64,000 nucleotides of DNA from Patescibacteria group bacterium. Lineage in GTDB: Bacteria; Patescibacteriota; JABMPQ01; JAQVVF01. The stretch is from contig JBAZSC010000004.1 of assembly GCA_041662665.1 (NCBI GenBank), positions 10,464 to 74,463 on the forward strand, written 5' to 3'. Positions within the stretch are counted from its first letter, which is position 1, and the number at the start of each line of letters is the position of its first letter. Positions 9,256 through 63,296 of this stretch are shown piece after piece. The notes beneath the pieces are model-generated. The model did not search any database. It was not told the origin of the DNA and saw only the letters and a program-made list of their open reading frames with translations. Both the position numbers and the translations under genes were made by a program.

Positions 9256-10782
9256 ATGAAAATAAAAACAACAATTTTAATTTTGTTATGTTTTCTTTTT
9301 ACTCCTTTTTTAACATTAGCGGAAGGCTCATCTGCCATATCCTACAGTTTTACTTGGCCATTAGATAAATGGATCTTTGACATGGAAGGTCAAAAATTTG
9401 GCACTATCAGAGGATCTGGGATTTATCATCTTGGCGATGATATTGGAATACAAGCAAACTCACCAGTTTATGCAATTGCCACAGGAGTTGTAAAAAATAT
9501 TGGCGTTTATACTGATTTCGGCACTGTTATTTTAATTGAACACACATTAGCAAATCAAGAAAAAATTGTTTCATTATATGGTCATCTTGGACGAGACACT
9601 CAAGTTGAAAAAGGACAATTTGTTAATAAAAATCAAATTATTGGTTATATCGGTACTACAGATGTTAATGGAGGCTGGCCAGAACATCTTCATTTCGGAA
9701 TCAGAAAAGGCGCCTATGTTACAAATTGGGTCTATTGGGGCTTAGGGTCAAAGGACAAATTAAATGATTGGCATAATCCAACTGATTTTTTATGGTACAA
9801 AATTAATAATCCAGATGTTAATTCTGGAAAAATTGTAACCTCCCCAAATTATCCTGGACGATCACACATTAGAATTTTTGACGAACAAGGTCTTGCCATT
9901 CCAACTTTTGATTTCTTCGCTTACCCTCCAAAGAACAAACAAGGATCTCAAATTTCTCTTGGCGATATCAATAATGATCAAAAACAAGAATTAATAATTA
10001 GCTCAAATAGTTATAAACCACAAATAAAAATTTTTAACAAAAATTCACAAGACTTTATTGCCAAATTCAAACCATTCTCCAAAAAATATAATGGCCAAAT
10101 TAATCTTGCAACGACAGATTTAAATTTAGACGGTCAAGATGAAATTATTGCCACATCTAGTTCAAATCAATATCCAAAAATAAAAATATTTTCTTTATCC
10201 GCCGAAGTCCCGCAGGACGAAGGCGGACTATACAAAACAACAAACACTTTTATAGAATTAACAAAAATTCCAAGTCCATTTAGCCATAAAATAAAATGCG
10301 GAATTAATTTAACAACTATTGATCTAAATAATGATGGCAAGAAAGAGATTCTCGCTACACCAGCCAATAATAAAAAATCAGTTTTAAAATATTGGGACGG
10401 CACAACTTGGCAAATTTTAAAATCCAGGATTTTCAAAAAAACTACCGCAAAATTAACAACTGGCGATATTGATGCAGATGGCAATGAAGAAATAATTGCT
10501 GGCTCACAATCAAATACAAGATCAGTCATCAAAATTATTAATAAAAATGGACACATCAGAAAGAAAAAAATTAAACCATTTGCCAGATATAATCAAGACG
10601 GAATAAATATTTCAACAGTTGATTACAATAATGATGGCATTACTGAAATAATTACTTCAATTGCCAAAAATGGCTCGCCTAGAATTAAAGTTTTTCAATA
10701 TCCTCAAAATATTGCCATTGCCAATTTTTTAGCCTATAATGAAAATTTCACTGGTGGTGTAAATATAGTGGGAATAAAATAA
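9256..10782 (+). CDS. Secreted M23-family metallopeptidase fused to FG-GAP/VCBS-like repeats
   Basis: Signal peptide. M23 motifs HLGDDIG (HxxxD) and EHLHFGI (HxH). At least five DxNxDGxxE repeats (DINNDQKQE, DLNLDGQDE, DLNNDGKKE, DIDADGNEE, DYNNDGITE). Confidence 0.8.
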   Translation: MKIKTTILILLCFLFTPFLTLAEGSSAISYSFTWPLDKWIFDMEGQKFGTIRGSGIYHLGDDIGIQANSPVYAIATGVVKNIGVYTDFGTVILIEHTLANQEKIVSLYGHLGRDTQVEKGQFVNKNQIIGYIGTTDVNGGWPEHLHFGIRKGAYVTNWVYWGLGSKDKLNDWHNPTDFLWYKINNPDVNSGKIVTSPNYPGRSHIRIFDEQGLAIPTFDFFAYPPKNKQGSQISLGDINNDQKQELIISSNSYKPQIKIFNKNSQDFIAKFKPFSKKYNGQINLATTDLNLDGQDEIIATSSSNQYPKIKIFSLSAEVPQDEGGLYKTTNTFIELTKIPSPFSHKIKCGINLTTIDLNNDGKKEILATPANNKKSVLKYWDGTTWQILKSRIFKKTTAKLTTGDIDADGNEEIIAGSQSNTRSVIKIINKNGHIRKKKIKPFARYNQDGINISTVDYNNDGITEIITSIAKNGSPRIKVFQYPQNIAIANFLAYNENFTGGVNIVGIK

Positions 10783-10904: not shown

Positions 10905-11978
10905 ATGTTAATTTTAGGTATCGACACATCCTGCGACGACACATCAGCCGCCATAGTCAAAGACGGCTCTTTTGTTTTATCAAATATTGTTTCTTCTCAA
11001 ACAGAAATCCATAGACAATTCGGCGGAGTTGTTCCAGAAGTTGCAGCAAGATCTCACATTGAATTAATCATTCCTGTTATTAAACAAGCTTTGCAAGAAG
11101 CAAATATAAAAAAAGAAGAATTAGATTTAATTGCCGTCACCAATGGTCCAGGTCTAATTACATCTTTAATGGTCGGCATTGATACTGCCAAGTCATTAGC
11201 CTATTCTTTAAATAAAAAAATCATCGCTATCAATCACATCGAAGGCCATATTTACTCCAACTGGCTCGTTCAAAAAAATAATTTCCGAATTTCCGAATTT
11301 CCCCTGTCCGCCGAAGCCAAACAAAGTGAGGCGAAGGCGGAGAATTTCCAATTTCCAATATTATGTTTAATAGTTAGTGGTGGTCACACTGAATTAATTT
11401 ACATGAAAGATCATCTAAATTACAACGTCATCGGCCAAACCAGAGACGATGCTGCTGGCGAAGCCTTTGATAAAGTCGCTAAATTATTAGATATCGGCTA
11501 TCCAGGCGGACCAATTATTTCCAAATTAGCAGAATCTGGAGATGATCAAGCTTACAATTTTTCTCGGCCAATGATTAATTCTAAAGATTTTGATTTTAGT
11601 TTTTCTGGATTAAAAACAGAAGTCTTAAGATTAACAAAAGAAAATAATATTTTTTCAAAACAACAAATTAACGATATTTGCGCTTCCTTCCAAAAAGCAG
11701 TTGTTGATACTTTAATTTTTAAGACAATAAATGCCGCCAAAAAATATAATGTCAAAACAATTATGTTGGGTGGCGGAGTTTCTGCAAACAAATCTTTACG
11801 AAAAAACCTTGAACAAAAAATCCAACAAGAGATCCCAGACTCTCACTTCTCAATTCTCAATTCCCAATTCTCAAGCGATAATGGAGCGATGATCGCTAGC
11901 ACAGCCTATCAATACGCTAAAAATAACAAGTTTAGCGATTTCTCAAAAATCATTCCAGAAGCAAATCTTTCGCTATAA
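10905..11978 (+). CDS. tsaD: tRNA N6-adenosine threonylcarbamoyltransferase TsaD (Kae1/YgjD family)
   Basis: MLILGIDTSCDDTSAAIV N-terminus and the HIEGH metal-binding motif. The true start is probably the ATG at 10905, since the 12 codons upstream in the ORF track lie inside the inverted repeat. Carries a roughly 25-aa in-frame repeat-derived insert at 11283-11358. Confidence 0.9.
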   Translation: MLILGIDTSCDDTSAAIVKDGSFVLSNIVSSQTEIHRQFGGVVPEVAARSHIELIIPVIKQALQEANIKKEELDLIAVTNGPGLITSLMVGIDTAKSLAYSLNKKIIAINHIEGHIYSNWLVQKNNFRISEFPLSAEAKQSEAKAENFQFPILCLIVSGGHTELIYMKDHLNYNVIGQTRDDAAGEAFDKVAKLLDIGYPGGPIISKLAESGDDQAYNFSRPMINSKDFDFSFSGLKTEVLRLTKENNIFSKQQINDICASFQKAVVDTLIFKTINAAKKYNVKTIMLGGGVSANKSLRKNLEQKIQQEIPDSHFSILNSQFSSDNGAMIASTAYQYAKNNKFSDFSKIIPEANLSL

Positions 11979-12024: not shown

Positions 12025-12501
12025 CTAACATCGTAGCTGAGAATCACAAAGTACATCATCATCAACAACATAATTTTCCAAATCAAATCTCAATTCACCA
12101 GATCTAAAAAGCATCAACACAAAATTAACAATTGCATTATTATGACAATTGTCCGTCAAAAAAATCCGCCGATAACTACCATCAGAATCATAATAGAAAT
12201 AGATATCTGGACTGAAATCACTAATTTCTGCAAGTGTTACTTCCTTTAGATCATCTCTTTGCACATAGCCACCTAGACAATGCTCATCATTAAAAGAATA
12301 TTTTTTCATCTCCACAACAAAATACCTTATTTTTGCAACACTATGATCATATCTTGAAATTGGCTTGATGATCAAAGCTCTTAGACTTTGTTCGATCAAC
12401 ATTGCCGGTTCCTCCTCTTGTAAAAGGGCATCTTTTCTGATAGAATTAATCTCGAAATCGGTAAAACAATTTATTTTAGTACTAAATTCATAAAATGTCA
12501 A
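12025..12501 (-). CDS. Hypothetical protein
   Basis: 158-aa ORF with no recognisable motif. Confidence 0.4.
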   Translation of the reverse strand: MTFYEFSTKINCFTDFEINSIRKDALLQEEEPAMLIEQSLRALIIKPISRYDHSVAKIRYFVVEMKKYSFNDEHCLGGYVQRDDLKEVTLAEISDFSPDIYFYYDSDGSYRRIFLTDNCHNNAIVNFVLMLFRSGELRFDLENYVVDDDVLCDSQLRC

Positions 12502-15044
12502 GTCTTTCCAAAAAATATAATATTTTAGAACAAGAACAAAAATGGCAGAATTTTTGGGATCAAAACAATATTTATAAGTTCAATTCTAGCTCAAAAAAGC
12601 CAATTTTCTCAGTTGACACTCCTCCGCCTTATGCTTCAGCAGCTCATCTTCATGTCGGCCATGCCATGTCTTATACTCAAGCCGAATTTATCATCCGTTT
12701 CAAAAGAATGCAAGGTTTTAATGTTTTTTATCCCATGGGTTTTGATGACAATGGCTTACCAACTGAAAGATATGTTGAACAAAAATACAAAATTGCTGAT
12801 AAATCAAAAATTTCTCGCGAAGAATTTATTCAATTATGTTTAAAAGAAACCAAAGAAGTTGCCAAAACTTATACTTCTCTTTGGAAATCTTTAGGCCTTT
12901 CAATTGACTGGTCTTTATTATACTCAACAATCAGCGAATCATCTCGTCGTATTTCTCAAAAATCATTTTTAGATTTATACAAAAAAGGCTTATTAGAACA
13001 TCGCGAAGAGCCAACAATTTGGTGTCCGCACGACCAAACAGCATTAGCTCAAGCAGATCTTGAAGATGCCGAAGAAAAATCTACACTAAACTATATATCG
13101 TTCGAACTTAAACACTCAAACACTGAAACACCGGAACACTCTGACGATCCGACGCTCCGACGTTCTGACGCTCTCATTATCGCCACTTCCAGACCAGAAT
13201 TATTACCTGCATGTGTAGCTCTCTATGTCAATCCAGACGATGTCCGTTACAAAAACTTAATAAACAAAACTGCCATTGTTCCATTGTTTAATTATGAAAT
13301 CAAAATAAAATCCGACCCCACTGTTGATCCAAAATTTGGGACTGGCTTAATGATGGTTTGTACTTGGGGCGACTCCGAAGATGTTGCCAAATGGAAAAAA
13401 GACAAACTAGACACTAGATTAATTTTTGATAAATCTGGCCATCTTAATGAATGGGCAAAAACTTATCAAGGCTTAGATATAAAAACAGCTCGCACAAAAA
13501 TTTTAGAAGATTTACAAAAACAAAATCTTTTAGTCAAACAAGAAGATATTACTCATGTTTTAAATGTTCATGAACGTTGTAAAACTCCTGTTGAATTTTA
13601 TTTAACTAAACAATGGTTCATTAAAATTTTAGACAATTTAGAGGATTTTAAAAAACAAGGAAACAAAATAAATTGGTTTCCGCTCTTCATGAAAAAGAAA
13701 TATGACACCTGGCTAGATGGCTTAAAATGGGATTGGAATATTTCAAGAGAGCGCTATTATGGCGTCCCATTTCCAGTTTGGTATTGCAAAAAATGTCATG
13801 AAATAATTTTACCTGACGAAAAAGATTTGCCAATTGATCCATTACAAGATCAACCAAAACATCCTTGCCCAAAATGCCAATCGGAAGAATTTGTTCCAGA
13901 AAAAGATGTAATGGACACATGGATGACATCATCATTGACTCCACAAATTAATTCTCATTGGCAAGAACAAGATGAAAACAAAAAACTTTATCCAATGTCT
14001 TTACGGATTCAAGCTTTTGAAATTATCAGAACTTGGCTTTTTTATACAGTTGTAAAATCTTGGTACCATGAAAAAAAATTACCATGGCAGGATGTTATGA
14101 TTTCAGGCCATGGCTTGGATGAACAAGGCCGAAAGATTTCTAAATCATTAGGCAATTATGAACCAGTTGCTAATATAATTAAACGCTATGGTTCTGATGC
14201 TCTGCGTTATTGGTCAGCTGGATCAAATTTAGGAAATAATTTGAGATATAAAGAAGAAGAAGTCAAAGATGGCAAAAAATTAATCACCAAATTATTCAAC
14301 GCTTCAAAATTTAGCTTAATGTTTTTGCAATCCGTCAATCCGTCCGACTTTAAGAACTTTATGAACTTTAAAAACTTTCAACTTCAACCTCTTGATCAAT
14401 GGATATTAAGTAAACTTCAAACAACAATTAAAAACGTTACTGAACATTTTAACACGTACGAGTATTCAAAAGCCAAAAAAGAAGTTTACAACTTTTTCTG
14501 GAAAAATTTTGCTGATAATTATATTGAGCTTGCAAAATCAAGACTTTACAATGATGAAAACAAAGTAGCTAAAACATCAGCTCAAGCAACATTATATATT
14601 TGTTTAATAAATATTTTAAAAATGTTCGCGCCAATCTTGCCTCACATCACTGAAGAGATTTGGCAAGCGTTGCGAGAATTAAACAACGAAACAAAAAAAC
14701 AAGAAAACAGTCCAACTATCGAACAATCAATTCATATTAGTGCTTGGCCAAAAGTTGATAAAAAATTAGTTAACGAAAAGCAAGAAAAACTTGGTGATCA
14801 GATTGTCGAAATTTTAGCCGAAGTCCGAAAAACAAAATCGAATACTAATCTTGCAATGAATAAAGAAATCAAAGAAATAATTATTGATTCTAAAGAAAAA
14901 GATTTAGAAAAATTCTTTCCAGATCTAGCCAATGCCACACATGCCGAACAAATTTCATTTGGCACTGGCGATCTTCACCCTACGAGTGACCACCCGAAGG
15001 GTGGGAAAATTTCTGAAAATCTTAAAATAAAAATTGTTTTGTAG
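12495..15044 (+). CDS. valS: Valyl-tRNA synthetase (class I aaRS; Val assignment from the PPPYAS...HVGHA motif)
   Basis: HIGH region PPPYASAAHLHVGHA and KMSKS region KISKSLGN; 849 aa. Contains in-frame repeat-derived inserts at 13137-13176, 14332-14386 and 14962-15003. Confidence 0.75.
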   Translation: MSSLSKKYNILEQEQKWQNFWDQNNIYKFNSSSKKPIFSVDTPPPYASAAHLHVGHAMSYTQAEFIIRFKRMQGFNVFYPMGFDDNGLPTERYVEQKYKIADKSKISREEFIQLCLKETKEVAKTYTSLWKSLGLSIDWSLLYSTISESSRRISQKSFLDLYKKGLLEHREEPTIWCPHDQTALAQADLEDAEEKSTLNYISFELKHSNTETPEHSDDPTLRRSDALIIATSRPELLPACVALYVNPDDVRYKNLINKTAIVPLFNYEIKIKSDPTVDPKFGTGLMMVCTWGDSEDVAKWKKDKLDTRLIFDKSGHLNEWAKTYQGLDIKTARTKILEDLQKQNLLVKQEDITHVLNVHERCKTPVEFYLTKQWFIKILDNLEDFKKQGNKINWFPLFMKKKYDTWLDGLKWDWNISRERYYGVPFPVWYCKKCHEIILPDEKDLPIDPLQDQPKHPCPKCQSEEFVPEKDVMDTWMTSSLTPQINSHWQEQDENKKLYPMSLRIQAFEIIRTWLFYTVVKSWYHEKKLPWQDVMISGHGLDEQGRKISKSLGNYEPVANIIKRYGSDALRYWSAGSNLGNNLRYKEEEVKDGKKLITKLFNASKFSLMFLQSVNPSDFKNFMNFKNFQLQPLDQWILSKLQTTIKNVTEHFNTYEYSKAKKEVYNFFWKNFADNYIELAKSRLYNDENKVAKTSAQATLYICLINILKMFAPILPHITEEIWQALRELNNETKKQENSPTIEQSIHISAWPKVDKKLVNEKQEKLGDQIVEILAEVRKTKSNTNLAMNKEIKEIIIDSKEKDLEKFFPDLANATHAEQISFGTGDLHPTSDHPKGGKISENLKIKIVL

Positions 15045-21166: not shown

Positions 21167-21862
21167 ATGATTTATCTTTGGTACATTTTTGTCGCCTTAT
21201 TGCCAGGTTTATTCTGGCTCTGGTTTTATCGTCGAAAAGACAGACAAAATCCAGAACCATTAAAACAAATTTTCAAAATCTTTGTTTGGGGCATGGCTGC
21301 AACAATTCCTGCTATTGCTTTGGAATTCTCCGCTGATTTTTTTATTCCTTATGCTTCGTCAACAAAATATTTAGCCATGGTTTTAAGCTCATTTTTAATC
21401 GTCGCTCCGATTGAAGAATTTTTTAAATATTTAGTTTTAAAGCACAAAGCAGCAGAAAGCAAAGAATTCAACGAACCAATTGATGGAATTATTTATGGCA
21501 TTGTTGTTGGCTTAGGCTTTGCGACATTAGAAAACTTTTTGGTAACTTTAAGCGATGGCGGAACAGTTATTATTTTACGCTTTGCAACTGCTACTTTAAT
21601 GCATGCGATTTGTTCTGGTATCGTTGGTTATTATCTTGCTCGTCAAAAATTCCATCCTCAAGGCAACAAATCAAGCGTCATGAAAGGACTTTTCCTTGCC
21701 ATTTTTTTGCATGGCTTATACAATTCCGTCGCCTCTTACAATTCATCATATTCAATCATTTTGCTCGCTATTTTAATCATTGTCATGTATCTGATGCTTT
21801 CTCAAGATATTAAAGCCATAAAAAGATTAAAAATTACTGCTCAACAAAATAATCAAGAATAA
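21167..21862 (+). CDS. PrsW-family intramembrane metalloprotease
   Basis: Multi-TM protein with the EEFFKYL (EExxK), FATATLMH and HGLYN motifs of the PrsW family. Confidence 0.65.
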   Translation: MIYLWYIFVALLPGLFWLWFYRRKDRQNPEPLKQIFKIFVWGMAATIPAIALEFSADFFIPYASSTKYLAMVLSSFLIVAPIEEFFKYLVLKHKAAESKEFNEPIDGIIYGIVVGLGFATLENFLVTLSDGGTVIILRFATATLMHAICSGIVGYYLARQKFHPQGNKSSVMKGLFLAIFLHGLYNSVASYNSSYSIILLAILIIVMYLMLSQDIKAIKRLKITAQQNNQE

Positions 21863-21947
21863 TTCATTAGTACACCATTCGCAAACACTTGTCCACCGAA
21901 GTCCCGCAGGACGCAGGTGGATTCGAAAATTAATTAGAGTGTACAAC

Positions 21948-27951: not shown

Positions 27952-29802
27952 TTATTTACCAATTGCATAATATCTTTGCGAAAAATTAAACGGAGATTTC
28001 AAATAAACCGTAAAAGTATTTTTCTTTGTATTGCGTTTAGCTGACAAATTAGTCCACTTTTTTGATTTCAAATTATATGCTTTTAGATATAAATTCTTTT
28101 CTTTCAACCCTTTTACTTTTTTCTTTAATTTTTTAAATTCTTTTTTAGAATATGAAAATACTAATTTTAATTTAACATTCTTACTTAATTTATATTTTGA
28201 AAAATCAGTATTAATTTTCCAATATTTTTTTAACAAATTATGCTTTGCATCCACAAAAAGTTTTGTAAATTTCTTTTTTCTCACAACCAAAAAATATCTT
28301 TTTGTTTTTTTAAAAGCTTTTGGATATTTTTTGAAAGTCAAATTTAATTCTCTAGCATAATATTTTTTATTTTTCTTTTTAATCCTTACTTCATTTTTTT
28401 TCTTCGCTTTTTTTGTAACAAACTTTGGATTACCGACATATTTGACATTAAAAGATACAACAGCAGATTCAGCACTATAGACATCTCTAAATTTAACGTA
28501 AATTGTTTTTATGCCTTTTTTTGAAGGCATTTTAAAAATCGTATTAGCCAAATAACTGCTCCAAATCTTATTAGAAAAATCAGACTTTGTCGAAACAATC
28601 ATTTCAGTAGGACTGCCAGAAACTGAAGATGCAATATTAATTTTTCTATAAGCTGAATAATCCCTTCCATTATTTATTGTTATTGTTTGAACTGAAGGTC
28701 CAGGAGTATAAGTATAATTCAAACTAGTATTAACTAAACCAGCACTAGTTTTAAAATAAATAACATGTGTTCGATTCATTGAATCTATTCCTAACGATAT
28801 TGGACGATAATATGCATTAAAAGTTTCAAAAGAAAACAAAAGACTGTACGATCCAGTATCCTGTTGATTATAAATTGACCATTGTCCAGAAACATTTGTC
28901 GCGTATTTTAATCTGCCATTTAAAATATCATGATAAGCAACATGCAATTTATTATTATCATCAATTTTTAATGAAGGATAATAGCCCACTTGACCTGCAC
29001 TGTCATTATCAATAACACTTGCAACCCATGCTCCTGAAATATTAGTAATATATTTTAAATCAGAGTTAGTATAATCCAAATAAGCAATATGAATTTTATT
29101 ATTTGAATCAATCGCTATGGAAGACTGAAGACCTACCGATCCATTAGAATCTAAAACTACAGATAGCCAAGAACCACTATCATTAGTAATATATTTTAAA
29201 TCGGAATTAGTAGTATCACGATAAGAAATATGCACCTTATTATTTGAATCCAATGCCAAAGAAGAACTACCTCCAACATCAGTACTAGAATCTATTGTTT
29301 CATTTGCCCATGAACCAGACACGTTTGTCGCATATTTCAAATTGCTATTATCTGAATCATAATAGCTTACATATATTTTTTTATTTCCATCCAAAGCCAT
29401 TGATACTTGTCCCAAGCCAATAGTTCCACTATTATCAATTATCTCGAAAACCCATGTTCCATTAACATTATTCGCATATTTTAACCAATCATTCGTTCTA
29501 TCTTCATAAACAATATATACTTTTCCATTAACATCTATTCCCAAAGAAGAATTACCAACATTAACAGAGTTATCAACAATTTCTGCCATCCAAGTACCAG
29601 AAGAATTAGTCGCATATTTCAAATCAGAATTAGTATTATCAAAATAACTAATATGAACTTTGTTATTTTGATCAATTGCTAATGCATTAACACTTCCAGC
29701 AGATGCCTCCAATTCCTGCGACTGCCAATCAGCAGCCAAAACATTTTGGCCAAACAGAAACAGACCAACAATGGCCAGACAAATTAATAAATACCTCCGC
29801 AT
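27952..29802 (-). CDS. Secreted repeat protein, paralog 4 of 6
   Basis: Same architecture; the 7 repeats are counted explicitly; ends RYYAIGK. Confidence 0.8.
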   Translation of the reverse strand: MRRYLLICLAIVGLFLFGQNVLAADWQSQELEASAGSVNALAIDQNNKVHISYFDNTNSDLKYATNSSGTWMAEIVDNSVNVGNSSLGIDVNGKVYIVYEDRTNDWLKYANNVNGTWVFEIIDNSGTIGLGQVSMALDGNKKIYVSYYDSDNSNLKYATNVSGSWANETIDSSTDVGGSSSLALDSNNKVHISYRDTTNSDLKYITNDSGSWLSVVLDSNGSVGLQSSIAIDSNNKIHIAYLDYTNSDLKYITNISGAWVASVIDNDSAGQVGYYPSLKIDDNNKLHVAYHDILNGRLKYATNVSGQWSIYNQQDTGSYSLLFSFETFNAYYRPISLGIDSMNRTHVIYFKTSAGLVNTSLNYTYTPGPSVQTITINNGRDYSAYRKINIASSVSGSPTEMIVSTKSDFSNKIWSSYLANTIFKMPSKKGIKTIYVKFRDVYSAESAVVSFNVKYVGNPKFVTKKAKKKNEVRIKKKNKKYYARELNLTFKKYPKAFKKTKRYFLVVRKKKFTKLFVDAKHNLLKKYWKINTDFSKYKLSKNVKLKLVFSYSKKEFKKLKKKVKGLKEKNLYLKAYNLKSKKWTNLSAKRNTKKNTFTVYLKSPFNFSQRYYAIGK

Positions 29803-29874
29803 AATTTTTTTGTTTTTATTCCACCAAAGTTCCGCAGAACGTAGGTGGATTAATTTTTAAAAACTTAAAATAAA

Positions 29875-31686
29875 CTATTTTATTCCAATCCCAAAAGTCC
29901 TTTTGCTAAAAGAAATTGGAGAATCAATTATTAAAGTAAAAGTTCTCTTTTTTAAATTTAAAGTTGCAAATGAATTTTTCCACTTTTTCTTTAATTTATT
30001 GTAATATAATAATTTCAAATCACTTTGTTTTAATGTCTTATTATTCTTTTTTAATTTTTTGAATTCTTTTTTAGAATAATTAAAAGTCACTTTTAATCTG
30101 AAATTATTCTTGGCTTTTTTATAAGTATATTTATTTAAATCATCTGTCACTAGCCAATATTTTTTTAATAGCTTATTTTTGTCTATTTTCTTAAAATAGT
30201 TACTGAATAATTTTGATTGAACAAAATATTTTTCTTTTTTTAAATTTTTTGGATATTTTGTCATTACAAAATTCAAATCTCTCGCAGAATAAACCTTGCC
30301 TTGCTTTTTCAACAAAACTTCATTAACTTTTCTAGCCTTTTTTGTTACAAATTTTGGATTTTTAATGTATCTAATTGTCTTTGTTAAAGCACCTGATTCA
30401 GCAAACCATTGATCTCTGAAATTGACATAAACTGTTTTTGTTCCATCAACTTTTGATAAAGTAAAAATCTTTGATGTATCATAAGCTTCCCAATTTGCAT
30501 TTGCAAAATCAGCATTTTCAGAAATTATCATTTCAGTTGGACTGCCTGCTGAAGATAAAGACAATGCTACTGTTCTTAAGGCAGTATATGCTTTATTAGA
30601 ATTAATCTTTAAACTTGTATTTGTTGGTCCCATAGAAGCAGCGTATTTTAAATCGCCATTTGTATGATCCTGATAAGCAATATGAATTCTATTTAGATCA
30701 TCAACCTTAATTGAAGTTTGAAAACCTAAAATTAAAGTATCGCTTCCTTGATCAACAATATATTTCTGAAAGGTTCCTGAAATATTTGTCGCATATTTCA
30801 AAGAATAATTTGGATAACCATCATGATAACTAATATGAGCATAATTATTTTTATCCAAGCTCAAACTAGAAAACATTCCAGTCAATCCTCCTGCTAAAAC
30901 TGCAGTATCAATTGTTGTTTTCTGCCAACTTCCAGATAAATTTGTAATATATTTCAAAGCTTGCACTCCGCCATCATAATAGCTAACATGCACTTTATTA
31001 TTTGTATCAACAGCAATTGAAGAATATTGTCCAACTCCTCCATTATCAATTGCTGAGCTTAAAAAAGATCCTGATTCATTTGTTGCGTATTTTAACCATT
31101 GATTACTGCTATCATAATAGCTAATATGAGCTTTGCCATTTGAATCAACTGCAATTGATGTATTGCTTGTAGAAGATAATGTTTCTACATCGTAGAAAAA
31201 CCAAGTTCCAGATGACTTGATTGCATATCTAACTTTTGATCCATTATAATAGCTAATATTCAATCGATCACTTGAATCAATCGCCATATCCACAAAAGTC
31301 CCGCCCAAAGCATCTAAAACAGAATTTCCCCAATTTCCTCCAGCATTTGTGGCATATTTCAAATCATCATTTACAGCATCATAATAAGCAATATGAATTT
31401 TGTTCGCTGAATCAACCACTAAAGAAGGATAAAGCCCAACCATTACTGAACTCTCGTCAATTATCGTAATTTGAAAACTGCCAGAACTATTAGTCGCATA
31501 TTTTAATTTACCATCACCAAGATATGCAATATGAACATATCCTAACGAATCAACACTAATTGATGTTCCATCTCCAGCAAAACCAGTTGCATCAACTGTT
31601 GTTTTTTGCCAATCTGCTGCCAACACAGTATGACCAAACAACATCAGGCAAAACATTGCCACCAAAATTAATAATTTCTTTTTCAT
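29875..31686 (-). CDS. Secreted repeat protein, paralog 5 of 6 (more divergent)
   Basis: Signal peptide, LKYATN repeats, beta module and a lysine-rich tail ending FGIGIK. Confidence 0.75.
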   Translation of the reverse strand: MKKKLLILVAMFCLMLFGHTVLAADWQKTTVDATGFAGDGTSISVDSLGYVHIAYLGDGKLKYATNSSGSFQITIIDESSVMVGLYPSLVVDSANKIHIAYYDAVNDDLKYATNAGGNWGNSVLDALGGTFVDMAIDSSDRLNISYYNGSKVRYAIKSSGTWFFYDVETLSSTSNTSIAVDSNGKAHISYYDSSNQWLKYATNESGSFLSSAIDNGGVGQYSSIAVDTNNKVHVSYYDGGVQALKYITNLSGSWQKTTIDTAVLAGGLTGMFSSLSLDKNNYAHISYHDGYPNYSLKYATNISGTFQKYIVDQGSDTLILGFQTSIKVDDLNRIHIAYQDHTNGDLKYAASMGPTNTSLKINSNKAYTALRTVALSLSSAGSPTEMIISENADFANANWEAYDTSKIFTLSKVDGTKTVYVNFRDQWFAESGALTKTIRYIKNPKFVTKKARKVNEVLLKKQGKVYSARDLNFVMTKYPKNLKKEKYFVQSKLFSNYFKKIDKNKLLKKYWLVTDDLNKYTYKKAKNNFRLKVTFNYSKKEFKKLKKNNKTLKQSDLKLLYYNKLKKKWKNSFATLNLKKRTFTLIIDSPISFSKRTFGIGIK

Positions 31687-31763
31687 GATTTTCCCTCGTC
31701 CGCCATGCTTCTTCGCTTAAGCGAAGAGCGAAGGCGGATATTAAATAGTAATTATTTTAAAAT

Positions 31764-39395: not shown

Positions 39396-39518
39396 TTTGG
39401 CAGAAGAATCTTGAATCTAGAATTTGGAATCTAGAATGAATAATGAATTTAGAATACAGAATTCTCGATTCTAAATTCCAAATTCTATTCCAGATTCTAG
39501 ATTCCAGATTCTATATTC
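39396..39518. repeat. Inverted oligo-repeat element (gaatctagaat words)
   Basis: ttgaatctagaatttggaatctagaatg is paired with cagattctagattccagattctat. Confidence 0.6.
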
Positions 39519-39526
39519 TAATTTTT

Positions 39527-40570
39527 ATGTCCACAAAACTTTCAGACTACGACTACAATCTTCCACAAAAACTAATTGCCCAAACACCAGCTTCTCCAAG
39601 AGACAAAGCACGTCTTTTAGTTTTGAATCGAAAAAATGACAAGATTTTTCATCACAAATTTTTCGAAATTGACAAATTTTTGAAAAAGGGCGATGTCATA
39701 GTTTTAAATAATACCAAAGTCATTCCAGCCAGATTATATGGCAAAAAAGAAACCGGCGGTAAGGTCGAAATTTTATTATTAAATCCTGTAGCGACAGGGC
39801 ACTGCCCTGTCGCGGTCTGGTCGTGTCTCACCAAGCCAGGCTTAAAACCAAATACTAAAATAATTTTTAATAACAAAATTTCTGCCAAAATAATTTCTCG
39901 TGAAAATGAAAAAGCAACTATAGAATTTGATTTAAACAAAAAACAATTTAACCAATTTTTAAAAAAATCTGGCAATGTCCCATTACCTCCATACATCTCA
40001 CCAAAACAAAAAAACAATAAAACAAAAAAACAATACCAAACCGTTTTCGCAAAATTTGATGGTTCTGTCGCCGCTCCAACTGCTGGTCTTCATTTCACGA
40101 ACAGATTAATCAAAAAATTAAAAAATAAAGGTATTAAATTTGAATATATAACTTTACATGTCGGTTTAGGCACTTTTCAGCCAGTCAAAGAAAATGATAT
40201 TACTAAACACAAAATCCATTCAGAATACGCTGAAATTTCTGCACAAACCGCTAAAAACTTGAACAATGCAAAGAAAAAAGGCCATCGCATTATCGCTTGT
40301 GGAACAACAGTAGTTCGAACACTCGAAGCCGCAGCAATTAACAATTTAGCAATTAAACAATTTAGCAATAATACATCAATTTTTATCACGCCAGGCTATA
40401 AATTCAAATTCGTTGACGCGATGATCACGAATTTCCATTTACCAAAATCAACACTATTAATGTTAATTTCTGCTTTTTCTAATTTAAAACAAATTAAAAA
40501 AACTTATAAAGTCGCCATAAAAAACAAATACAAATTTTATTCTTTCGGTGACGCAATGTTAATATTGTAA
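39527..40570 (+). CDS. queA: S-adenosylmethionine:tRNA ribosyltransferase-isomerase QueA
   Basis: MSTKLSDYDYNLPQKLIAQTP N-terminus typical of QueA. The start is assigned to the ATG at 39527. Carries an in-frame GC-rich palindrome at 39786-39833. Confidence 0.85.
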   Translation: MSTKLSDYDYNLPQKLIAQTPASPRDKARLLVLNRKNDKIFHHKFFEIDKFLKKGDVIVLNNTKVIPARLYGKKETGGKVEILLLNPVATGHCPVAVWSCLTKPGLKPNTKIIFNNKISAKIISRENEKATIEFDLNKKQFNQFLKKSGNVPLPPYISPKQKNNKTKKQYQTVFAKFDGSVAAPTAGLHFTNRLIKKLKNKGIKFEYITLHVGLGTFQPVKENDITKHKIHSEYAEISAQTAKNLNNAKKKGHRIIACGTTVVRTLEAAAINNLAIKQFSNNTSIFITPGYKFKFVDAMITNFHLPKSTLLMLISAFSNLKQIKKTYKVAIKNKYKFYSFGDAMLIL

Positions 40571-40582
40571 AACAAATTTTAA

Positions 40583-40618
40583 ACTAATTTTCCGACGCTC
40601 TGACGTTCTGACGCTCTG
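40583..40618. repeat. 8-nt tandem microsatellite, about 4 units of CTCCGACG/GACGCTCT
   Basis: tccgacgctctgacgttctgacgctctg. Confidence 0.7.
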
Positions 40619-40620
40619 AT

Positions 40621-40648
40621 TTTCCGAAATAAAAAAGAGCCCATTAGG
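40621..40648 (-). terminator. Terminator of island gene A
   Basis: The minus-strand RNA forms agaguccuaaugggcucu followed by U6. The identical sequence recurs at 41431-41458. Confidence 0.65.
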
Positions 40649-40666
40649 ACTCTATAAAAAAGAGCT

Positions 40667-41203
40667 TCAGTTCATCTTCATCCTGTAAGCTTCACAAACC
40701 TTGAAAGTCAGACTTCCCCGAAAATCATAATAGTTGGTAGCACGCTTGCCATTTCCATTCACTGGCAAGTTTTCATAATCGTAAAAAGTTGAATCGTCAA
40801 TGTGACTCAACGAAATCTTTCGAGCCATTTTGCGATTCACATTGATTGCAGTCATCATTCGACCCTTGTATCGCTTCGGCCGATGTCCACCGATCAACCG
40901 CTCAGCGCGACGATTGTCTTCACCAACCTTCACGCCAACAGTCAACAGATGACGCCGCCTCAAGTTCGAATAAGGAGTGCCATTCCCACGTTCACCATGA
41001 TGTTTTCCAGTCCCGGCAACAGGCTTGCCCCGAACCGGATCTCTCATCCATTCCATCACATTCTTCTTCTCTTCACGCTTCCTTTCCACTTGCTTTCGCA
41101 CTTCTTCGTCATACGACATCCTGTTCTCAATTTCTCTTCTCTGATAGTCTCTGTCAGCAGTATTCTTGTTTGCAACACAAGCAGTATCTCGATGAATGCC
41201 CAT
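40667..41203 (-). CDS. Island protein A, hypothetical (AGTGKHHG-motif family)
   Basis: Start reassigned to the ATG at 41203, preceded by ggagggaaagag (SD). The ORF-track N-terminal extension (TTG start at 41311) contains the sigma70 promoter. The product is charged and R/K/E-rich. Confidence 0.6.
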   Translation of the reverse strand: MGIHRDTACVANKNTADRDYQRREIENRMSYDEEVRKQVERKREEKKNVMEWMRDPVRGKPVAGTGKHHGERGNGTPYSNLRRRHLLTVGVKVGEDNRRAERLIGGHRPKRYKGRMMTAINVNRKMARKISLSHIDDSTFYDYENLPVNGNGKRATNYYDFRGSLTFKVCEAYRMKMN

Positions 41204-41273
41204 CTCTTTCCCTCCACGCGCCTGTTTTTCCAGGCTGTTCGTCCCTCCACGACACCAGAAAACAGAATAAAAC

Positions 41274-41301
41274 ATTATATCACAACCATATAATTTGTCA
41301 A
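41274..41301 (-). promoter_or_regulatory. Canonical sigma70-type promoter of island gene A (TTGACA-N16/17-TATAAT)
   Basis: The minus strand reads ttgacaaattatatggttgtgatataat. Confidence 0.65.
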
Positions 41302-41378
41302 GATTTTTCAATATTTAAGCTTATTTAAAACAAAAAAACTACAAACATTTCCGAAAATCTGACAATCAGAAGCTCAGA

Positions 41379-41428
41379 AGTCTGACGCTCCGACGCTCCA
41401 ACGCTCCGACGTTCCCACGTTCCCAAAT
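41379..41428. repeat. 8-nt tandem microsatellite (CTCCGACG)n, about 6 units
   Basis: gtctgacgctccgacgctccaacgctccgacgttcccacgttccc. Confidence 0.7.
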
Positions 41429-41430
41429 AA

Positions 41431-41458
41431 AAAAGAGCCCATTAGGACTCTACAAAAA
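41431..41458 (-). terminator. Terminator of island gene B (identical to that at 40621-40648)
   Basis: aaataaaaaagagcccattaggactct. Confidence 0.65.
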
Positions 41459-41477
41459 GGTACAAATTACAAATAGT

Positions 41478-42248
41478 TCAATCGAATACAACTGGTACGA
41501 ACCCACCCTGATTGTGCCAAGGCATATGCTCTCCCATCGCAAATCCGAAAGGATCTTCAAACCGACGATCTTCCAGATCCTCAATCTTTGGAACCTTCCA
41601 ATTCGAACTCCGATCTGTAACAACTCGATTCAGCTTAGGATCGAACATTCTGAATTGAAGCCCATCTTGACTGAAAAGATCCGCATTGAAATGGATTCCT
41701 CCATTCCTATCTTCTGCATCTTCATCTTCATCATGTTCATCAAACTGCTCAAAACTCTTCCCATCAGAAGAATTGTCATCATCTTCACAATCGTCTTCAT
41801 CCTTATCATTCACATCATCAGCACAAATGTAAGCAACAGCCGGTTCAGGCACATCGTTGATAGTCTTTTTCTTTGAAATGGCCACAAGTTCCTCAATCGT
41901 AACCTGATGCTCTTCCCTGAATTGCCGATCGATCTCAGCTTCCCATTCCTGAATGGTCGAATCATCAGCTTCACTCAAAGTCATCTTCCTCAAAACCAGA
42001 TCACGATGTTCACTTTCCATATCATGCACACCCTTCGGCTGTTTCGTTCCAATCAACCTTGTTCCACACTTCAAACGAATTGTACAAGTTGATTCACCTT
42101 GTCCAGAATCACCATGATGCTTTCCAGTTCCAGCAATTGGAAAACCCCTTTCCGGAGCAATGTAAGTTCGCTTCTCCCCTTTCTCTGCAAGTTCGTTCAG
42201 CCTCATCGTATGATAAACACGCTTCTGATCCTTGGACAACCGAGCCAT
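41478..42248 (-). CDS. Island protein B, hypothetical paralog of A (AGTGKHHG motif) with a long poly-acidic tract
   Basis: Start reassigned to the ATG at 42248, preceded by gcggagggaaagagaa (SD). Shares RGFPIAGTGKHHGDSGQG and RLIG with protein A. Contains the acidic stretch DDVNDKDEDDCEDDDNSSD...DEHDEDEDAED. Confidence 0.6.
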   Translation of the reverse strand: MARLSKDQKRVYHTMRLNELAEKGEKRTYIAPERGFPIAGTGKHHGDSGQGESTCTIRLKCGTRLIGTKQPKGVHDMESEHRDLVLRKMTLSEADDSTIQEWEAEIDRQFREEHQVTIEELVAISKKKTINDVPEPAVAYICADDVNDKDEDDCEDDDNSSDGKSFEQFDEHDEDEDAEDRNGGIHFNADLFSQDGLQFRMFDPKLNRVVTDRSSNWKVPKIEDLEDRRFEDPFGFAMGEHMPWHNQGGFVPVVFD

Positions 42249-42372
42249 TTCTCTTTCCCTCCGCGCCACCAAAACTTCTTGTTTGGTGGTCGTTTTCCCG
42301 CTTTTTTCTCTTGCGGGTCCCATCGATCTCGTACCCAAAATAACATAGAACTAACCAGAAATATAGCATTTT

Positions 42373-42401
42373 ATTCTATCATTAAAAAATAAAAATGTCA
42401 A
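42373..42401 (-). promoter_or_regulatory. Sigma70-type promoter of island gene B (TTGACA-N17-TAGAAT)
   Basis: The minus strand reads ttgacatttttattttttaatgatagaat. Confidence 0.6.
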
Positions 42402-42467
42402 TAGAAATCAAAAATACCAACTTTTTGGCTTTAAAAAGACAAGAAAAATATCATAAATTTGAGTGGT

Positions 42468-42546
42468 GGCGTTCTGACGATCCAAAGCTCCCACGCTCCG
42501 ACGCTCCGAAAGTCCCACGCTCCGACGCTCCCACGTCCCACGTTCC
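42468..42546. repeat. 8-nt tandem microsatellite, about 9 units (CTCCGACG/CTCCCACG)
   Basis: gttctgacgatccaaagctcccacgctccgacgctccgaaagtcccacgctccgacgctcccacgtcccacgttccc. Confidence 0.7.
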
Positions 42547-42548
42547 CA

Positions 42549-42580
42549 AATAAAAAAATGGCATCAAAGCCATTAAATAA
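42549..42580 (-). terminator. Terminator of island gene C
   Basis: The minus strand forms aatggctttgatgccatt followed by T7. Confidence 0.6.
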
Positions 42581-42587
42581 AGAACAA

Positions 42588-42941
42588 CTACAACTTTTTT
42601 GCTTCTACTCTTCTTTCAATTTCTCGCCTTACAGCCGACAACACACCTTGAGGCATCAGCTTCGAATCAAAATTCGTCCAACGAAAAATTTCAAAACCTA
42701 CTTTGATTTCACCCAAAGCAATCACTTCTCTCGCAATTTCCAACCTTTTCTGCAAATAATCCAAATCTTCCTTTCTGCACCATCCTCTCCTTTCAAATCC
42801 AAATTCATCAAAACCCCAGTCTGCCAAAACATCATCTGGATGATCAAAAAAATCTGTTTTGTGATCACCCTCGAAAGGATAAAAAACAGTACCACGCCTA
42901 ACAAAAATATCATTCAATGCATACTTCCGACCCTTATCCAT
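42588..42941 (-). CDS. Island protein C, hypothetical 117 aa
   Basis: Strong SD aaaggagagg 5 nt from the ATG; a 7-bp GC hairpin in the leader. No recognisable domain. Confidence 0.55.
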   Translation of the reverse strand: MDKGRKYALNDIFVRRGTVFYPFEGDHKTDFFDHPDDVLADWGFDEFGFERRGWCRKEDLDYLQKRLEIAREVIALGEIKVGFEIFRWTNFDSKLMPQGVLSAVRREIERRVEAKKL

Positions 42942-42994
42942 TTCCTCTCCTTTGCCTGTCTCCCCCTTTTGACAGGCTTTTTTTGCACCTTAAA

Positions 42995-43022
42995 AGTATA
43001 TCAAAATTTTTCATAAAGTCAA
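42995..43022 (-). promoter_or_regulatory. Sigma70-type promoter of island gene C (TTGACT-N16-TATACT)
   Basis: The minus strand reads ttgactttatgaaaaattttgatatact. Confidence 0.55.
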
Positions 43023-43052
43023 TATTATATTATAATCATAATATCAAAACCC

Positions 43053-43081
43053 TTGACTTTAAATAAAAAAGATATTATAAT
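43053..43081 (+). promoter_or_regulatory. Sigma70-type promoter of island gene D (TTGACT-N17-TATAAT), divergent from the gene C promoter
   Basis: ttgactttaaataaaaaagatattataat, followed by the SD aagggggg 5 nt before the ATG at 43118. Confidence 0.6.
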
Positions 43082-43117
43082 CAACCGTTCGTTCTCTTGA
43101 CAACAAGGGGGGAAAAA

Positions 43118-43918
43118 ATGCCTCCATTCAGCCAAACAAGATTAAATATCAACAAAATGCTTTTTGAACGAAAATGGTTTCAAAATACTGATGCTAATAT
43201 CGTTCAAAAACTCTTCAATTTGCCTGAAGCTTGTAATGGTTTTTTGGAAGATCTAGCAATTCGTCCTGAACAAATTGGCAAATGGACACTTTCCAAAATC
43301 TCTGAAATCTTCATTCCATTCAATGAACGTGCCTGGAACATTTACATCGTTTTTGAAATCAAAAATCAGAATGATGAAATCAGTCATTTCCAATACCATT
43401 CTTGGCAAAAAGGACCTTCGTCTGGAGTCAAAGGCATTGTTTTGATCAAAGATAAGACTTCTGGAAAAATCTCACACTTTGTTTTATTACAAGGCTATAA
43501 ATTTGGAGCAGGAGTACTAACTTTCGATTGTATTGGTGGCTTTGCTGAAGATGGTGAAGAAAATGAAGCCGGAATGACACAACGATTCCGCACTGAAATG
43601 AAAGAGGAGCTGGGACTTCCAACCTTGCCTCCTCATCAAATTGTTTCTCTTGGCAGATTTAATCCAGATGCTGGGATTTCCAATAACAGACCTTTCTTGA
43701 TGGTTGCAATTGTTTCTTCTGAACATTTGCCATACATCGAAACATCAAATCTCCCTAATCCAAGCACATTTGAAAACGTTGCAAAAATCATTGTTCCAGT
43801 TTCCGAACTTGCAAGATTTGTTGACAATTGCGAAGACTCGTTCTTTCATGTCTGCATTACCAGACTTTTAGCCAAAGGCATTACTCTTTCCACCAGCCCC
43901 ATCTCAACTCACCCTTAA
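43118..43918 (+). CDS. Island protein D, hypothetical with a degenerate Nudix-like box in its C-terminal half
   Basis: GGFAEDGEENEAGMTQRFRTEMKEELGL approximates the Nudix box GX5EX7REUXEEXGU with a one-residue shift. Start at the ATG after the G-rich SD. Confidence 0.45.
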   Translation: MPPFSQTRLNINKMLFERKWFQNTDANIVQKLFNLPEACNGFLEDLAIRPEQIGKWTLSKISEIFIPFNERAWNIYIVFEIKNQNDEISHFQYHSWQKGPSSGVKGIVLIKDKTSGKISHFVLLQGYKFGAGVLTFDCIGGFAEDGEENEAGMTQRFRTEMKEELGLPTLPPHQIVSLGRFNPDAGISNNRPFLMVAIVSSEHLPYIETSNLPNPSTFENVAKIIVPVSELARFVDNCEDSFFHVCITRLLAKGITLSTSPISTHP

Positions 43919-43934
43919 GTGAGTTTTTTTATTC
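43903..43934 (+). terminator. Terminator of island gene D
   Basis: actcacccttaagtgagt followed by T7. Confidence 0.6.
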
Positions 43935-44101
43935 CTTGTCAACCGTAATGCCTTCAAAATTTAGTTTCAAAAATTAAGGGATTTAGAAAATAAGAAAATT
44001 AAAATAAATTCATATCATATTTTTAAGGCATGAAGGTTGAACAAAAAAATCGCAATAGCGATTTAATTTAGAGTTATTTAAATAAATAAAAGTTTATTTT
44101 T

Positions 44102-53180: not shown

Positions 53181-53318
53181 TCGTTTAAAAAACTAAAAAT
53201 ATAAAAATCACTAACTCATATTATCATTTTTTCTATGCAACAGCAAACAAAAAAGAGCAGAATGCTCTTAATTTCTAATTTCCGAATTTTTATATTTTTA
53301 ATTTTTTATATCCGTACG

Positions 53319-53882: not shown

Positions 53883-53884
53883 AA

Positions 53885-59198: not shown

Positions 59199-59310
59199 CT
59201 TCGCCCGCCGAAGCTTTAGCAAAAGCGAAGGCGGGATAGTCAAATACACGAATCAATGTTTCTGTTTTTTCTAATTCACGGGCGGGCTTCGGCGGACAAA
59301 GTCCGTTAAG
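59196..59310. repeat. GC-rich palindromic elements (CCGCC-GAAG...GAAG-GGCGG family) abutting the tRNA-Ser 3' end
   Basis: cccgccgaagctttagcaaaagcgaaggcggg and cgggcgggcttcggcggacaaagtccg. Confidence 0.6.
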
Positions 59311-62441: not shown

Positions 62442-63170
62442 ATGACCATCTTAAAACAAATAGACCGAGAATTAAAACAACATATTGATCAAGGATACAA
62501 AGCAGGATCAATTAGATATTTCAAAGAAAAAATAAAAGTAATTGGCGTAAGAAGTAAGATTGTCAACAAGATTTCCCAAAAATATTGGAAAAATTTATCC
62601 ACCGAAGTCTCGCAAGACGGAGGTGGATCAAAATTAGAAATCTTTAATCTTTGCGAACAACTATTAAAAACTGGTTATAGTGAAAAAATCAGCATTGCCT
62701 TAGATTGGACATTTAGACTTAAAAAAGATTTTGAAAAATCAGATTTTAAAATTTTTACGTCTTGGCTTTCAAAGTATATTAGCAATTGGGCATCTGATGA
62801 CGATTTATGCACTCACCCATTAGGCTATCTTATTTATAAATTTCCAGAATTTTTACCGCAATTGCAAAAATTAACCAAATCAAAAAATAGATGGGAACGA
62901 CGTGCTTCAGCAGTCACATTTATTTATCCAATCCGCTATGATAAAAAATTTCTGCCACATGTTTTTAAAACTGCCAAAATCTTATTGCAAGATCAAGATG
63001 ATCTAGTCCAAAAAGGTTATGGCTGGATGTTAAAAGTTGCCAGCCAAAAATTTCCAGCAGATGTTTTAAAATTTATCAATCAACACAAATCCAAAATGCC
63101 ACGCACAGCTTTAAGATATGCCATTGAAAAATATCCACAAAGGATAAGAAGAGAAATCTTGAAAAATTAG
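62442..63170 (+). CDS. DNA alkylation repair protein, AlkD/AlkC-like HEAT-repeat family
   Basis: Helical repeat protein of matching size (242 aa) with a conserved Trp/Tyr layout. Carries an in-frame GC-rich hairpin insert at 62597-62630. Confidence 0.45.
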   Translation: MTILKQIDRELKQHIDQGYKAGSIRYFKEKIKVIGVRSKIVNKISQKYWKNLSTEVSQDGGGSKLEIFNLCEQLLKTGYSEKISIALDWTFRLKKDFEKSDFKIFTSWLSKYISNWASDDDLCTHPLGYLIYKFPEFLPQLQKLTKSKNRWERRASAVTFIYPIRYDKKFLPHVFKTAKILLQDQDDLVQKGYGWMLKVASQKFPADVLKFINQHKSKMPRTALRYAIEKYPQRIRREILKN

Positions 63171-63296
63171 CTTCTACCCTGCCCACGGCAGGAGTTAATC
63201 AACGCACAAAATAAAGACTTTTTCGCAAAACACGAACCCTTGCCACGCCTGCCCACCGTAGCATGTGCGAAGGTGGGGGCAAGGTAGAAAACTAAA
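63171..63296. other. GC-rich multi-hairpin structured element (candidate small RNA or REP cluster)
   Basis: Outer pairing ttctaccctgcc/ggcaaggtagaa; inner hairpins cctgcccacggcagg and cccaccgtagcatgtgcgaaggtggg. Confidence 0.4.

Follow-up and report, generated by a model that had tools for sequence, protein, structure and literature searches.

A GC-rich hairpin repeat read in frame in housekeeping genes of a Patescibacteria group bacterium

In a 64,000-nucleotide (nt) stretch of DNA from a Patescibacteria group bacterium (contig JBAZSC010000004.1, positions 10,464 to 74,463), hereafter called the window, a short palindrome rich in guanine and cytosine (GC) is read through in frame in an M23 peptidase gene and again in a gene for an AlkD-like DNA alkylation repair protein. 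A preliminary description, made from the sequence alone, took the two for independent in-frame insertions that are tolerated, or selected, as small coding inserts, and named conservation through RNA structure as the alternative. The locus therefore raises the question of what is being maintained: the peptide, an RNA structure, or the DNA itself. The account that we consider probable is that of a small dispersed GC-rich hairpin repeat, spreading at the DNA level and filtered by selection, for which the encoded peptide is a by-product.

Coding copies missing from orthologs

The M23 host open reading frame (ORF) encodes 508 amino acids, with M23 peptidase and FG-GAP/VCBS repeat domains identified by Pfam. 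Positions 10199-10226 read CCGCCGAAGTCCCGCAGGACGAAGGCGG, and the full palindrome at 10198-10227 is TCCGCC-GAA-GTCC-CGCA-GGAC-GAA-GGCGGA. The hairpin is translated as ...IFSLSAEVPQDEGGLYKTT... within the longer stretch ...KIKIFSLSAEVPQDEGGLYKTT..., and the translation of the ORF agrees with the reading SAEVPQDEGG that had been assigned to it. The net insertion is 33 nt (10195-10227, the hairpin together with the preceding TTA) and encodes L-SAEVPQDEGG. As the protein alignment shows, the segment is unique to the window protein and is carried by none of 17 homologs; the three closest of them (77-80% identity) have KIKIFSYNT-----------TTN where the window protein has KIKIFSLSAEVPQDEGGLYKTTN. At the DNA level, the orthologs in contigs L015, L016 and L018 exhibit a clean 33-nt gap at the insert. 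In the AlphaFold2 model of the protein (mean predicted local distance difference test, pLDDT, of 85), residues 315-325 form a loop between strands 309-314 and 332-337, and residues 319-328 have pLDDT values <50.

A similar pattern is seen with the AlkD-like gene, where the copy, TCCACCGAAGTCTCGCAAGACGGAGGTGGA, is translated as STEVSQDGGG in the same frame as the M23 copy, as the preliminary description had it, with hairpin bounds that we place as listed in Table 1. The segment is missing from all 16 aligned AlkD homologs, and 39 nt separate two conserved codons in the window versus 18 in L035 and L036, a net gain of 21 nt. The AlphaFold2 model has a mean pLDDT of 94, with a block of pLDDT 61 at the insert (residues 53-62), which is placed where helix 38-58 ends and in the loop preceding helix 64-77; residues 59-61 fall below 50. 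In both models, then, the insert is predicted to lie in a low-confidence surface loop compatible with the fold, while the rest of each protein is modeled with confidence. The orthologs of the two genes give no indication of an ancestral peptide conserved at the protein level, and the absence of the insert from every one of them identifies both as lineage-specific insertions.

The cleanest case is a third coding copy, a 39-nt variant in TsaD, in which the outer stem and the GAA/GAA internal loop are unchanged and the apical part is different. It is translated as (P)LSAEAKQSEAKAE and shares its frame with the M23 and AlkD copies. The TsaD gene of L015 has identical flanks, ...GAATTTCC|GAATTTCC..., and lacks the 39 nt, so that the insertion is exact. 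The variant sits within an in-frame tandem octamer tract, (GAATTTCC)n, at 11281-11302 and 11342-11356, which encodes ...FRISEFP...NFQFP...; this tract is common to the window and L015, and L016 has neither tract nor hairpin.

The fourth host gene lies outside the window. In the related contig L021 the element occurs antisense inside the gene for the NrdG activase, where it encodes DPPTSCGTLAD, and the closest ortholog, in L028 (79% identity), is without it. Two genomes have a filled NrdG site, with a different stem variant in each, and in closer relatives the site is empty. In L027 (GCA_964574655.1, 10001-10612), NrdG has been annotated with a start, MVGDPPSSC..., that falls exactly at the hairpin, with loss of the CxxxCxxC motif characteristic of radical S-adenosylmethionine enzymes. 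The full ORF is intact upstream of this start, and it appears that the gene caller was misled by the element.

Members and distribution of the family

Members were located in the window by fuzzy pattern matching and with a covariance model trained on ten distinct copies. When up to 3 mismatches are allowed, a degenerate 28-nt consensus matches 3 window sites, compared with 0.00 expected from dinucleotide-preserving shuffles. The two copies originally described are both real, but they are part of a larger set: the family has 8 members in the 64-kb window, of which 3 are coding and 5 intergenic, at a density of about 1 per 8 kb (Table 1). Four are canonical, and four are divergent members in which the outer stem and the GAA/GAA internal loop are retained and the apical part differs. 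The GC content across the window is 28-39%, in an AT-rich genome of about 30-31% GC, and the 30-mers are conspicuous against this background. The same copies are present in independent NCBI, JGI and Logan assemblies, which rules out an assembly artifact.

Table 1. Members of the hairpin family in the window, in order of position.
Member	Position	Strand	Context	Score (bits)	Structure and remarks
Canonical, 30 nt	10198..10227	+	in M23/FG-GAP peptidase gene 9256-10782	62.6	
Variant, 39 nt	11303..11341	+	in TsaD (about 10905-11978)	31.7	
Canonical	21892..21921	+	intergenic, 30 nt past stop of gene 21167-21862 (+); between convergent genes, upstream of a terminator-like hairpin belonging to that gene	59.3	
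Canonical	29820..29849	+	intergenic, between minus-strand genes 27952-29802 and 29875-31686; antisense to local transcription	54.3	inner stem GTTC/GAAC, a compensatory change
Divergent	31699..31738	+	intergenic, just upstream of start of minus-strand gene 29875-31686	16.7 (E 0.003)	outer stem TCCGCC/GGCGGA, longer apical hairpin; DNA fold z -4.3; weakest accepted member
Divergent	59204..59235	+	intergenic, directly after tRNA-Ser (59111-59199)	29.2	CCCGCC-GAAG-CTTT-AGCA-AAAG-CGAAGG-CGGG
Canonical	62598..62627	+	in AlkD-like DNA alkylation repair gene 62442-63170	57.6	
Divergent	63252..63277	+	intergenic, 82 nt past AlkD-like stop codon	13.7 (E 0.03)	CCCACC-GTAG-...-CGAAGG-TGGG; marginal

Beyond the window, 185,579 genome species representatives were scanned with a stricter 21-nt core pattern. 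This gave 14 loci, 13 of which are chance matches in high-GC Actinomycetota and similar genomes, leaving L012 as the sole true relative. Metagenomes were scanned with a 30-nt degenerate pattern in which the stem positions were left free; only 8 stretches were recovered, nearly all from one sample and 3 of them from the window's own genome, and the family is therefore narrowly distributed. The new sites found by this pattern lie in L020, L021, L022 and L026, plus one in the unrelated contig L025, and the covariance model adds two sites in L027 and one more in L012, so that related contigs with copies are L012, L020, L021, L022, L026 and L027. In L022 and L026, the intergenic copies match the M23 copy at all 30 nt. 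The strict pattern found no match in viral contigs, and extension past the window by way of flanking proteins gained ~6 kb with no further copy in it. Full-text literature searches on Candidate Phyla Radiation/Patescibacteria gave nothing relevant on such elements.

Three of the matches deserve separate description. Downstream of tgt in L020 (1225-1314, minus strand) is a tandem direct cluster consisting, in order, of a canonical copy, a degenerate copy with inner stem GCTC/GAGC, and a 5' fragment, each unit starting with TTGTCC. The site in L025 (OBEQ011417422.1, 2-205), from an unrelated organism of 53% GC, consists of CCTG followed by 30 nt close to the consensus. It lies within a partial repeat of the neighboring tRNA-Leu(GAG) that covers the anticodon and variable arm, and a second copy, inverted and divergent, is found 30 nt away at the contig end; these could reflect horizontal spread or an integration scar. 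Finally, a looser pattern matches the GC-rich phage contigs L029 (6091, 10786, 13907) and L031 (5332, 12626), IMG/VR contigs of 58-60% GC, whose several hairpins have the same architecture, with a 5' CTTG, a T/CCCGCC stem, GAAG...CGAAGG and a variable apex; the search pattern itself accounts for just one hairpin in each contig. The resemblance may reflect kinship or chance in GC-rich DNA, and we do not build on it.

Base pairing, strand polarity and reading frame

The element has the consensus YTTG-TCCRCC-GAA-GTYY-CGCA-RRAC-GNA-GGYGGA, of about 30-34 nt, and all copies fold alike into a two-stem hairpin. Folding energies are -14 to -20 kcal/mol as RNA (z -2.4 to -4.4) and about -9 to -10 kcal/mol as DNA (z -2.6 and -3.3). 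Among the ten distinct copies, 100% of the pair cells are standard pairs, and three pairs vary on both sides, one in the outer stem (GC/AU) and two in the inner stem (CG/UA). The covariation score is 0.242, compared with 0.129 in shuffles, none of 500 of which reaches it, and with ≤0.06 in slid controls. Two of the three copies in L027 show a further compensatory change, the transversion TCCTCC/GGAGGA. In the 3' internal loop the G and A are fixed and the middle base varies (GAA, GCA, GGA, GTA), and the two copies whose 5' side reads AAA both carry GTA opposite; this would fit sheared G-A pairs or a GNA-type loop.

The comparison of the M23 and AlkD copies separates the hairpin from its translation. 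The substitutions in one arm change amino acids (A to T, P to S), and those in the partner arm are silent (GGC to GGT, CAG to CAA) and keep the pairing; the two peptides differ by an E to G change as well. These compensatory changes, taken together with the intergenic copies that are identical to the M23 copy, demonstrate that it is the nucleotide hairpin, and not the peptide, that is conserved.

The orientation of the copies points to the level at which the repeat spreads. All eight window copies lie on the + strand, which is C-rich, with a GC skew of -0.12 to -0.34 in 31 of 32 2-kb bins, also across + strand genes. Since the minus strand holds 71% of the window coding sequence, the C-rich + strand is taken to be the lagging strand. 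Scoring across contigs with the local skew within ±3 kb puts 16 of 18 sites on the C-rich strand (binomial p 0.0013). L027 has a skew of +0.27 and carries its three copies on the minus strand, both copies in L012 are on the C-rich strand, and L020, L021 and L022 agree; the exceptions are L026, a 1.9-kb contig, and L036, a weak 17-bit hit. With respect to transcription there is no such rule: copies are sense to M23, TsaD and AlkD, and antisense to the minus-strand genes flanking 29820 and 31699 and in NrdG. Orientation therefore follows replication rather than transcription, which argues for a DNA-level and not an RNA-level cause. The window also contains, at 53300-56500, the rpmH-rnpA-yidD-yidC-jag set (by comparison with L035), a usual marker of the origin region; since the GC skew does not change sign there, the origin is apparently elsewhere.

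These data bear on the possibility that the hairpin is a functional RNA element, such as a 3' stabilizer, an RNase target or a protein-binding stem-loop, kept for its RNA structure, with the coding copies serving as regulatory structures in mRNAs. The strong covariation and complete pairing would be expected of such an element, as would the stable RNA folds, which are obtained on either strand; the 3' loop with its fixed G and A would be compatible with sheared G-A pairs, which proteins commonly recognize, and the copies at 21892, 63252 and in L026 lie just past stop codons. However, its orientation tracks the replication strand whether the copies are sense or antisense to transcripts, and its positions differ between related genomes, which is unusual for a gene-specific cis-regulator. 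Rfam gave no match for the hairpin, either across the whole window at gathering thresholds, where two tRNAs were found, or in a permissive search around an intergenic copy. An intrinsic terminator in particular is ruled out, as no T-run (and so no U-tract in the transcript) follows any canonical copy and a terminator scan lists none. We consider an RNA element unlikely. In the alternative that the preliminary description had raised, the conserved base pairing is borne out, but a cause at the RNA level is not.

Strict polarity relative to the GC skew would also be expected of a host-beneficial, replication-oriented DNA motif, that is, a binding or cleavage site for a host protein (gyrase, a nucleoid protein, or a factor in recombination or repair) or a DNA-uptake signal, kept at the density needed, inside genes as well. 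The roughly regular spacing of the copies would suit such a role, and a conserved outer stem and internal loop with a variable apex resembles a protein-recognition module; indeed, E. coli REPs (repetitive extragenic palindromes) are described as binding sites of host proteins (PMC2817692). Against this, two relatives, L015 (21.5 kb, from the same assembly as L012) and L016 (19 kb), are syntenic with a section of the window in which two copies occur, and have none themselves, so no local requirement is apparent, and the distribution, one true match among the species representatives and eight metagenome stretches, is very narrow. Moreover, known polar motifs (KOPS, the FtsK-orienting polar sequences; Chi; uptake sequences) are 8-12 nt long and are not 30-nt hairpins. 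A chromosomal motif of this kind is, in our judgment, quite unlikely. The syntenic regions without any copy show that copy positions are not conserved between relatives, which is expected for a mobile repeat.

We turn to the reading frame. All six frames of the element are free of stop codons. The five coding cases have net gains of +33, +39, +21, +18 and 0 nt, with the frame kept in each. These lengths rule out a fixed 33-nt element that would be in frame by construction, and since the gains differ, the frame must be kept through selection rather than by the length of the element. If the frame were irrelevant, as for an untranslated or bypassed insert, five in-frame cases out of five would arise with a chance of about 0.004, which argues that the coding segment would be translated rather than skipped.

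The shared peptide frame is largely a consequence of the strand rule. Because nearly all copies are on the C-rich strand, an insertion into a lagging-strand gene is necessarily sense, and most of the coincidence is thereby explained, with just a choice among three frames left. That all three sense coding copies use the same frame (p about 0.11) hints, though weakly, that the acidic, Gly/Pro-rich frame is tolerated best. The frames in use, sense frame 0 (SAEVPQDEGG) and antisense frame 1 (PPTSCGT), are the two of the six that avoid a strongly basic or a hydrophobic peptide, and this choice fits purifying selection on what a loop tolerates.

The remaining alternative, that the peptide itself is selected as an acidic flexible loop module and the palindrome is incidental, is very improbable: although the three sense coding copies share a frame, beginning (L)S-A/T-E-..., all three window coding copies are in + strand genes (29% of coding sequence; chance about 0.025) and the frames used rank lowest of the six in basic and hydrophobic character, most copies are intergenic, the peptide varies while the pairing stays, NrdG obtains a different peptide from the opposite strand, the hosts are functionally unrelated, all orthologs manage without the loop, and purifying selection against basic or hydrophobic frames explains the bias equally well. 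Thus, of the preliminary proposal that the inserts are tolerated or selected, tolerance holds up, with orthologs that lack the inserts, placement in surface loops and the third sense copy in TsaD, while selection of the peptide does not. An integron attC site is ruled out by size and by the absence of an R-box motif.

A small repeat spreading at the DNA level and filtered by selection therefore remains the account that we prefer. By analogy with known systems, new copies would arise in one orientation relative to replication, on the C-rich (lagging) strand. The likeliest route would be the processing of a folded single-strand hairpin by a strand-specific enzyme at the replication fork, as with the IS200/IS605 insertion sequences and the hairpins of REPs mobilized by REP-associated tyrosine transposases (RAYTs). 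Selection would then retain only harmless copies, either in spacers or in frame within genes at surface loops. Read-through in a lagging-strand gene would add a short acidic, Gly/Pro-rich loop (SAEVPQDEGG) without the peptide being selected. Both the single-strand transposition mechanism and the identity of the enzyme are extrapolated here from those systems.

Several observations weigh against this account. No Y1/HUH transposase, TnpA or RAYT (PF01797-type) is found by Pfam and NCBIfam among 20 window ORFs or in the gene tables of L015, L016, L027 and L035, a weak negative given that <~15% of the genome is visible. There is no consistent target-site duplication and no fixed insert length, and three of the hairpins have taken the place of some older sequence instead of simply being added to it. 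The 5' YTTG can be read either as the target or as an end of the element: it seems to arrive with the insert in TsaD and L025, and to be present already at the empty NrdG site. The filled NrdG genomes are not each other's closest relatives, which requires parallel insertion or gene conversion. Finally, on short contigs the strand polarity is inseparable from gene orientation. A bolder version of the proposal, which we regard as possible but rather doubtful, is that these are an undescribed class of ~30-nt hairpins of this lineage, with at least three families, that move as single-strand DNA at the replication fork, which would account for the near-absolute lagging-strand polarity, and that have time and again remodeled the surface loops of housekeeping proteins.

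Known repeats and other families in the window

The closest parallel in outcome is provided by the Rickettsia palindromic elements (RPEs), which are about 100-150 bp long (Ogata et al. 2000 Science 290:347 and 2002 Genome Res 12:808, cited through PMC10969869). Like them, the present repeats are palindromes of a reduced, AT-rich bacterial genome, both intergenic and in frame in unrelated housekeeping genes, and both are stop-free, read through, located at the protein surface and seemingly compatible with the fold (PMC10969869). The features by which coding RPEs are recognized, an in-frame, stop-free segment missing from orthologs, are found for M23, AlkD, TsaD and NrdG. The element described here differs in being only 30-39 nt long, adding 0-13 residues, and in having an unrelated sequence in another phylum. 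To our knowledge, strict replication-strand polarity is not a described feature of RPEs.

In form, the element is closer to the REP/RAYT system and to REPINs (REP doublets forming hairpins), which are dispersed, mostly extragenic, GC-rich imperfect palindromes of 20-40 nt (PMC2817692, PMC3333891, PMC3116915, PMC3733652). In both, a short sequence at the 5' foot of the stem is conserved, and a single-strand hairpin mechanism would account for the strand polarity seen here. REPs, however, carry a conserved GTAG or CGTC tetranucleotide at one palindrome end (PMC3733652), whereas no terminal GTAG/CGTC is present in our element; its 5' flank is YTTG or TTA, and GTAG is just internal, in two copies with a GTA 3' loop. 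In addition, 3 of 8 window copies are intragenic, the window has no inverted pairs of the kind found in REPINs or bacterial interspersed mosaic elements (8 of 8 share one orientation, and the sole inverted pair is that of the unrelated contig L025), and the sequence examined has no RAYT, a gene that REPs usually flank.

The IS200/IS605 elements and their non-autonomous hairpin derivatives (PMC5027513, PMC6006769) share an orientation tied to the direction of replication, as would be expected of elements that are mobilized as single strands at the lagging-strand template and recognized by way of a sub-terminal hairpin. Both IS200/IS605 "peel and paste" transposition and REP/RAYT act on hairpins and favor the lagging-strand template (PMC3333891, PMC5027513). 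The insertion sequences differ in having two different ends and tnpA, with or without tnpB, and in that TnpA inserts them 3' of a short fixed target that is not duplicated, while here there is a single geneless hairpin with no fixed target tetranucleotide established. The GC clusters of yeast mitochondria (e.g., GC42, PMC4478555) are likewise short GC-rich hairpins that have spread in a very AT-rich genome, mostly intergenic, with stems more conserved than loops (PMC4478555). The double-hairpin elements of Allomyces mitochondrial DNA (Paquin et al. 2000, cited in PMC4478555) also have a counterpart in the window, described below. These mitochondrial elements, however, are organellar and have no sequence similarity to ours, and the AG target duplication of GC42 (PMC4478555) is not seen here.

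Indeed, the hairpin is not the only short repeat in the window. A second family is a double hairpin, CACCC-NNNN-GGGTG-A-CCACCC-NNNN-GGGTGG, present on the + strand at 408-436 (intergenic) and at 14976-15004, where, in frame and close to the 3' end of the gene for a class I aminoacyl-tRNA synthetase (12495-15044), it adds HPTSDHPKGG; this segment (+10 amino acids) is missing from the L016 ortholog. A third is a GTAG-tagged perfect palindrome, GTAGCGACAGGGCACTGCCCTGTCGC, at 39787-39813 inside QueA (39443-40570), which resembles a classical REP; it is in frame, reads VATGHCPVAV and gives a net gain of 5 amino acids relative to T. maritima QueA (1vky). An identical palindrome is intergenic in L026 (1089-1111), and the family hints that a RAYT may exist in the genome.

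There are also GC-rich tandem repeats of ~8 nt, of the CGCTCCGA type, at 13137-13175, 41379-41424 and 42478-42549. One of these lies in frame within the aminoacyl-tRNA synthetase gene, and L016 has it too (DDPTLRRSDAL), and similar repeat-encoded peptides (GIFGASELRSFGASEL) are inserted in NrdG of related genomes (P0245, P0255). The other two flank a GC island (40600-43950, 38-39% GC in a roughly 30% GC genome) that contains paralogous minus-strand ORFs at 40667-41311 and 41478-42338, with the common motif P[VI]AGTGKHHG, plus two more ORFs; the ORFs of this island have no Pfam or NCBIfam match.

In-frame palindromic selfish DNA in genes has so far been treated as a peculiarity of Rickettsia, and the same outcome is now seen in the ultra-small genome of a member of the Patescibacteria, with elements far smaller than RPEs and with at least three unrelated families that have in-frame coding copies. 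The latter, and the strand polarity, are to us the most notable points. These observations suggest that in-frame inserts are a general outcome when hairpin repeats spread through compact, AT-rich genomes that have little spacer. Such inserts inflate the apparent divergence of proteins and can mislead gene callers. The replication-strand polarity, in turn, provides a testable handle on how very short hairpin repeats move, a question that is also open for REPs and for mitochondrial GC clusters.

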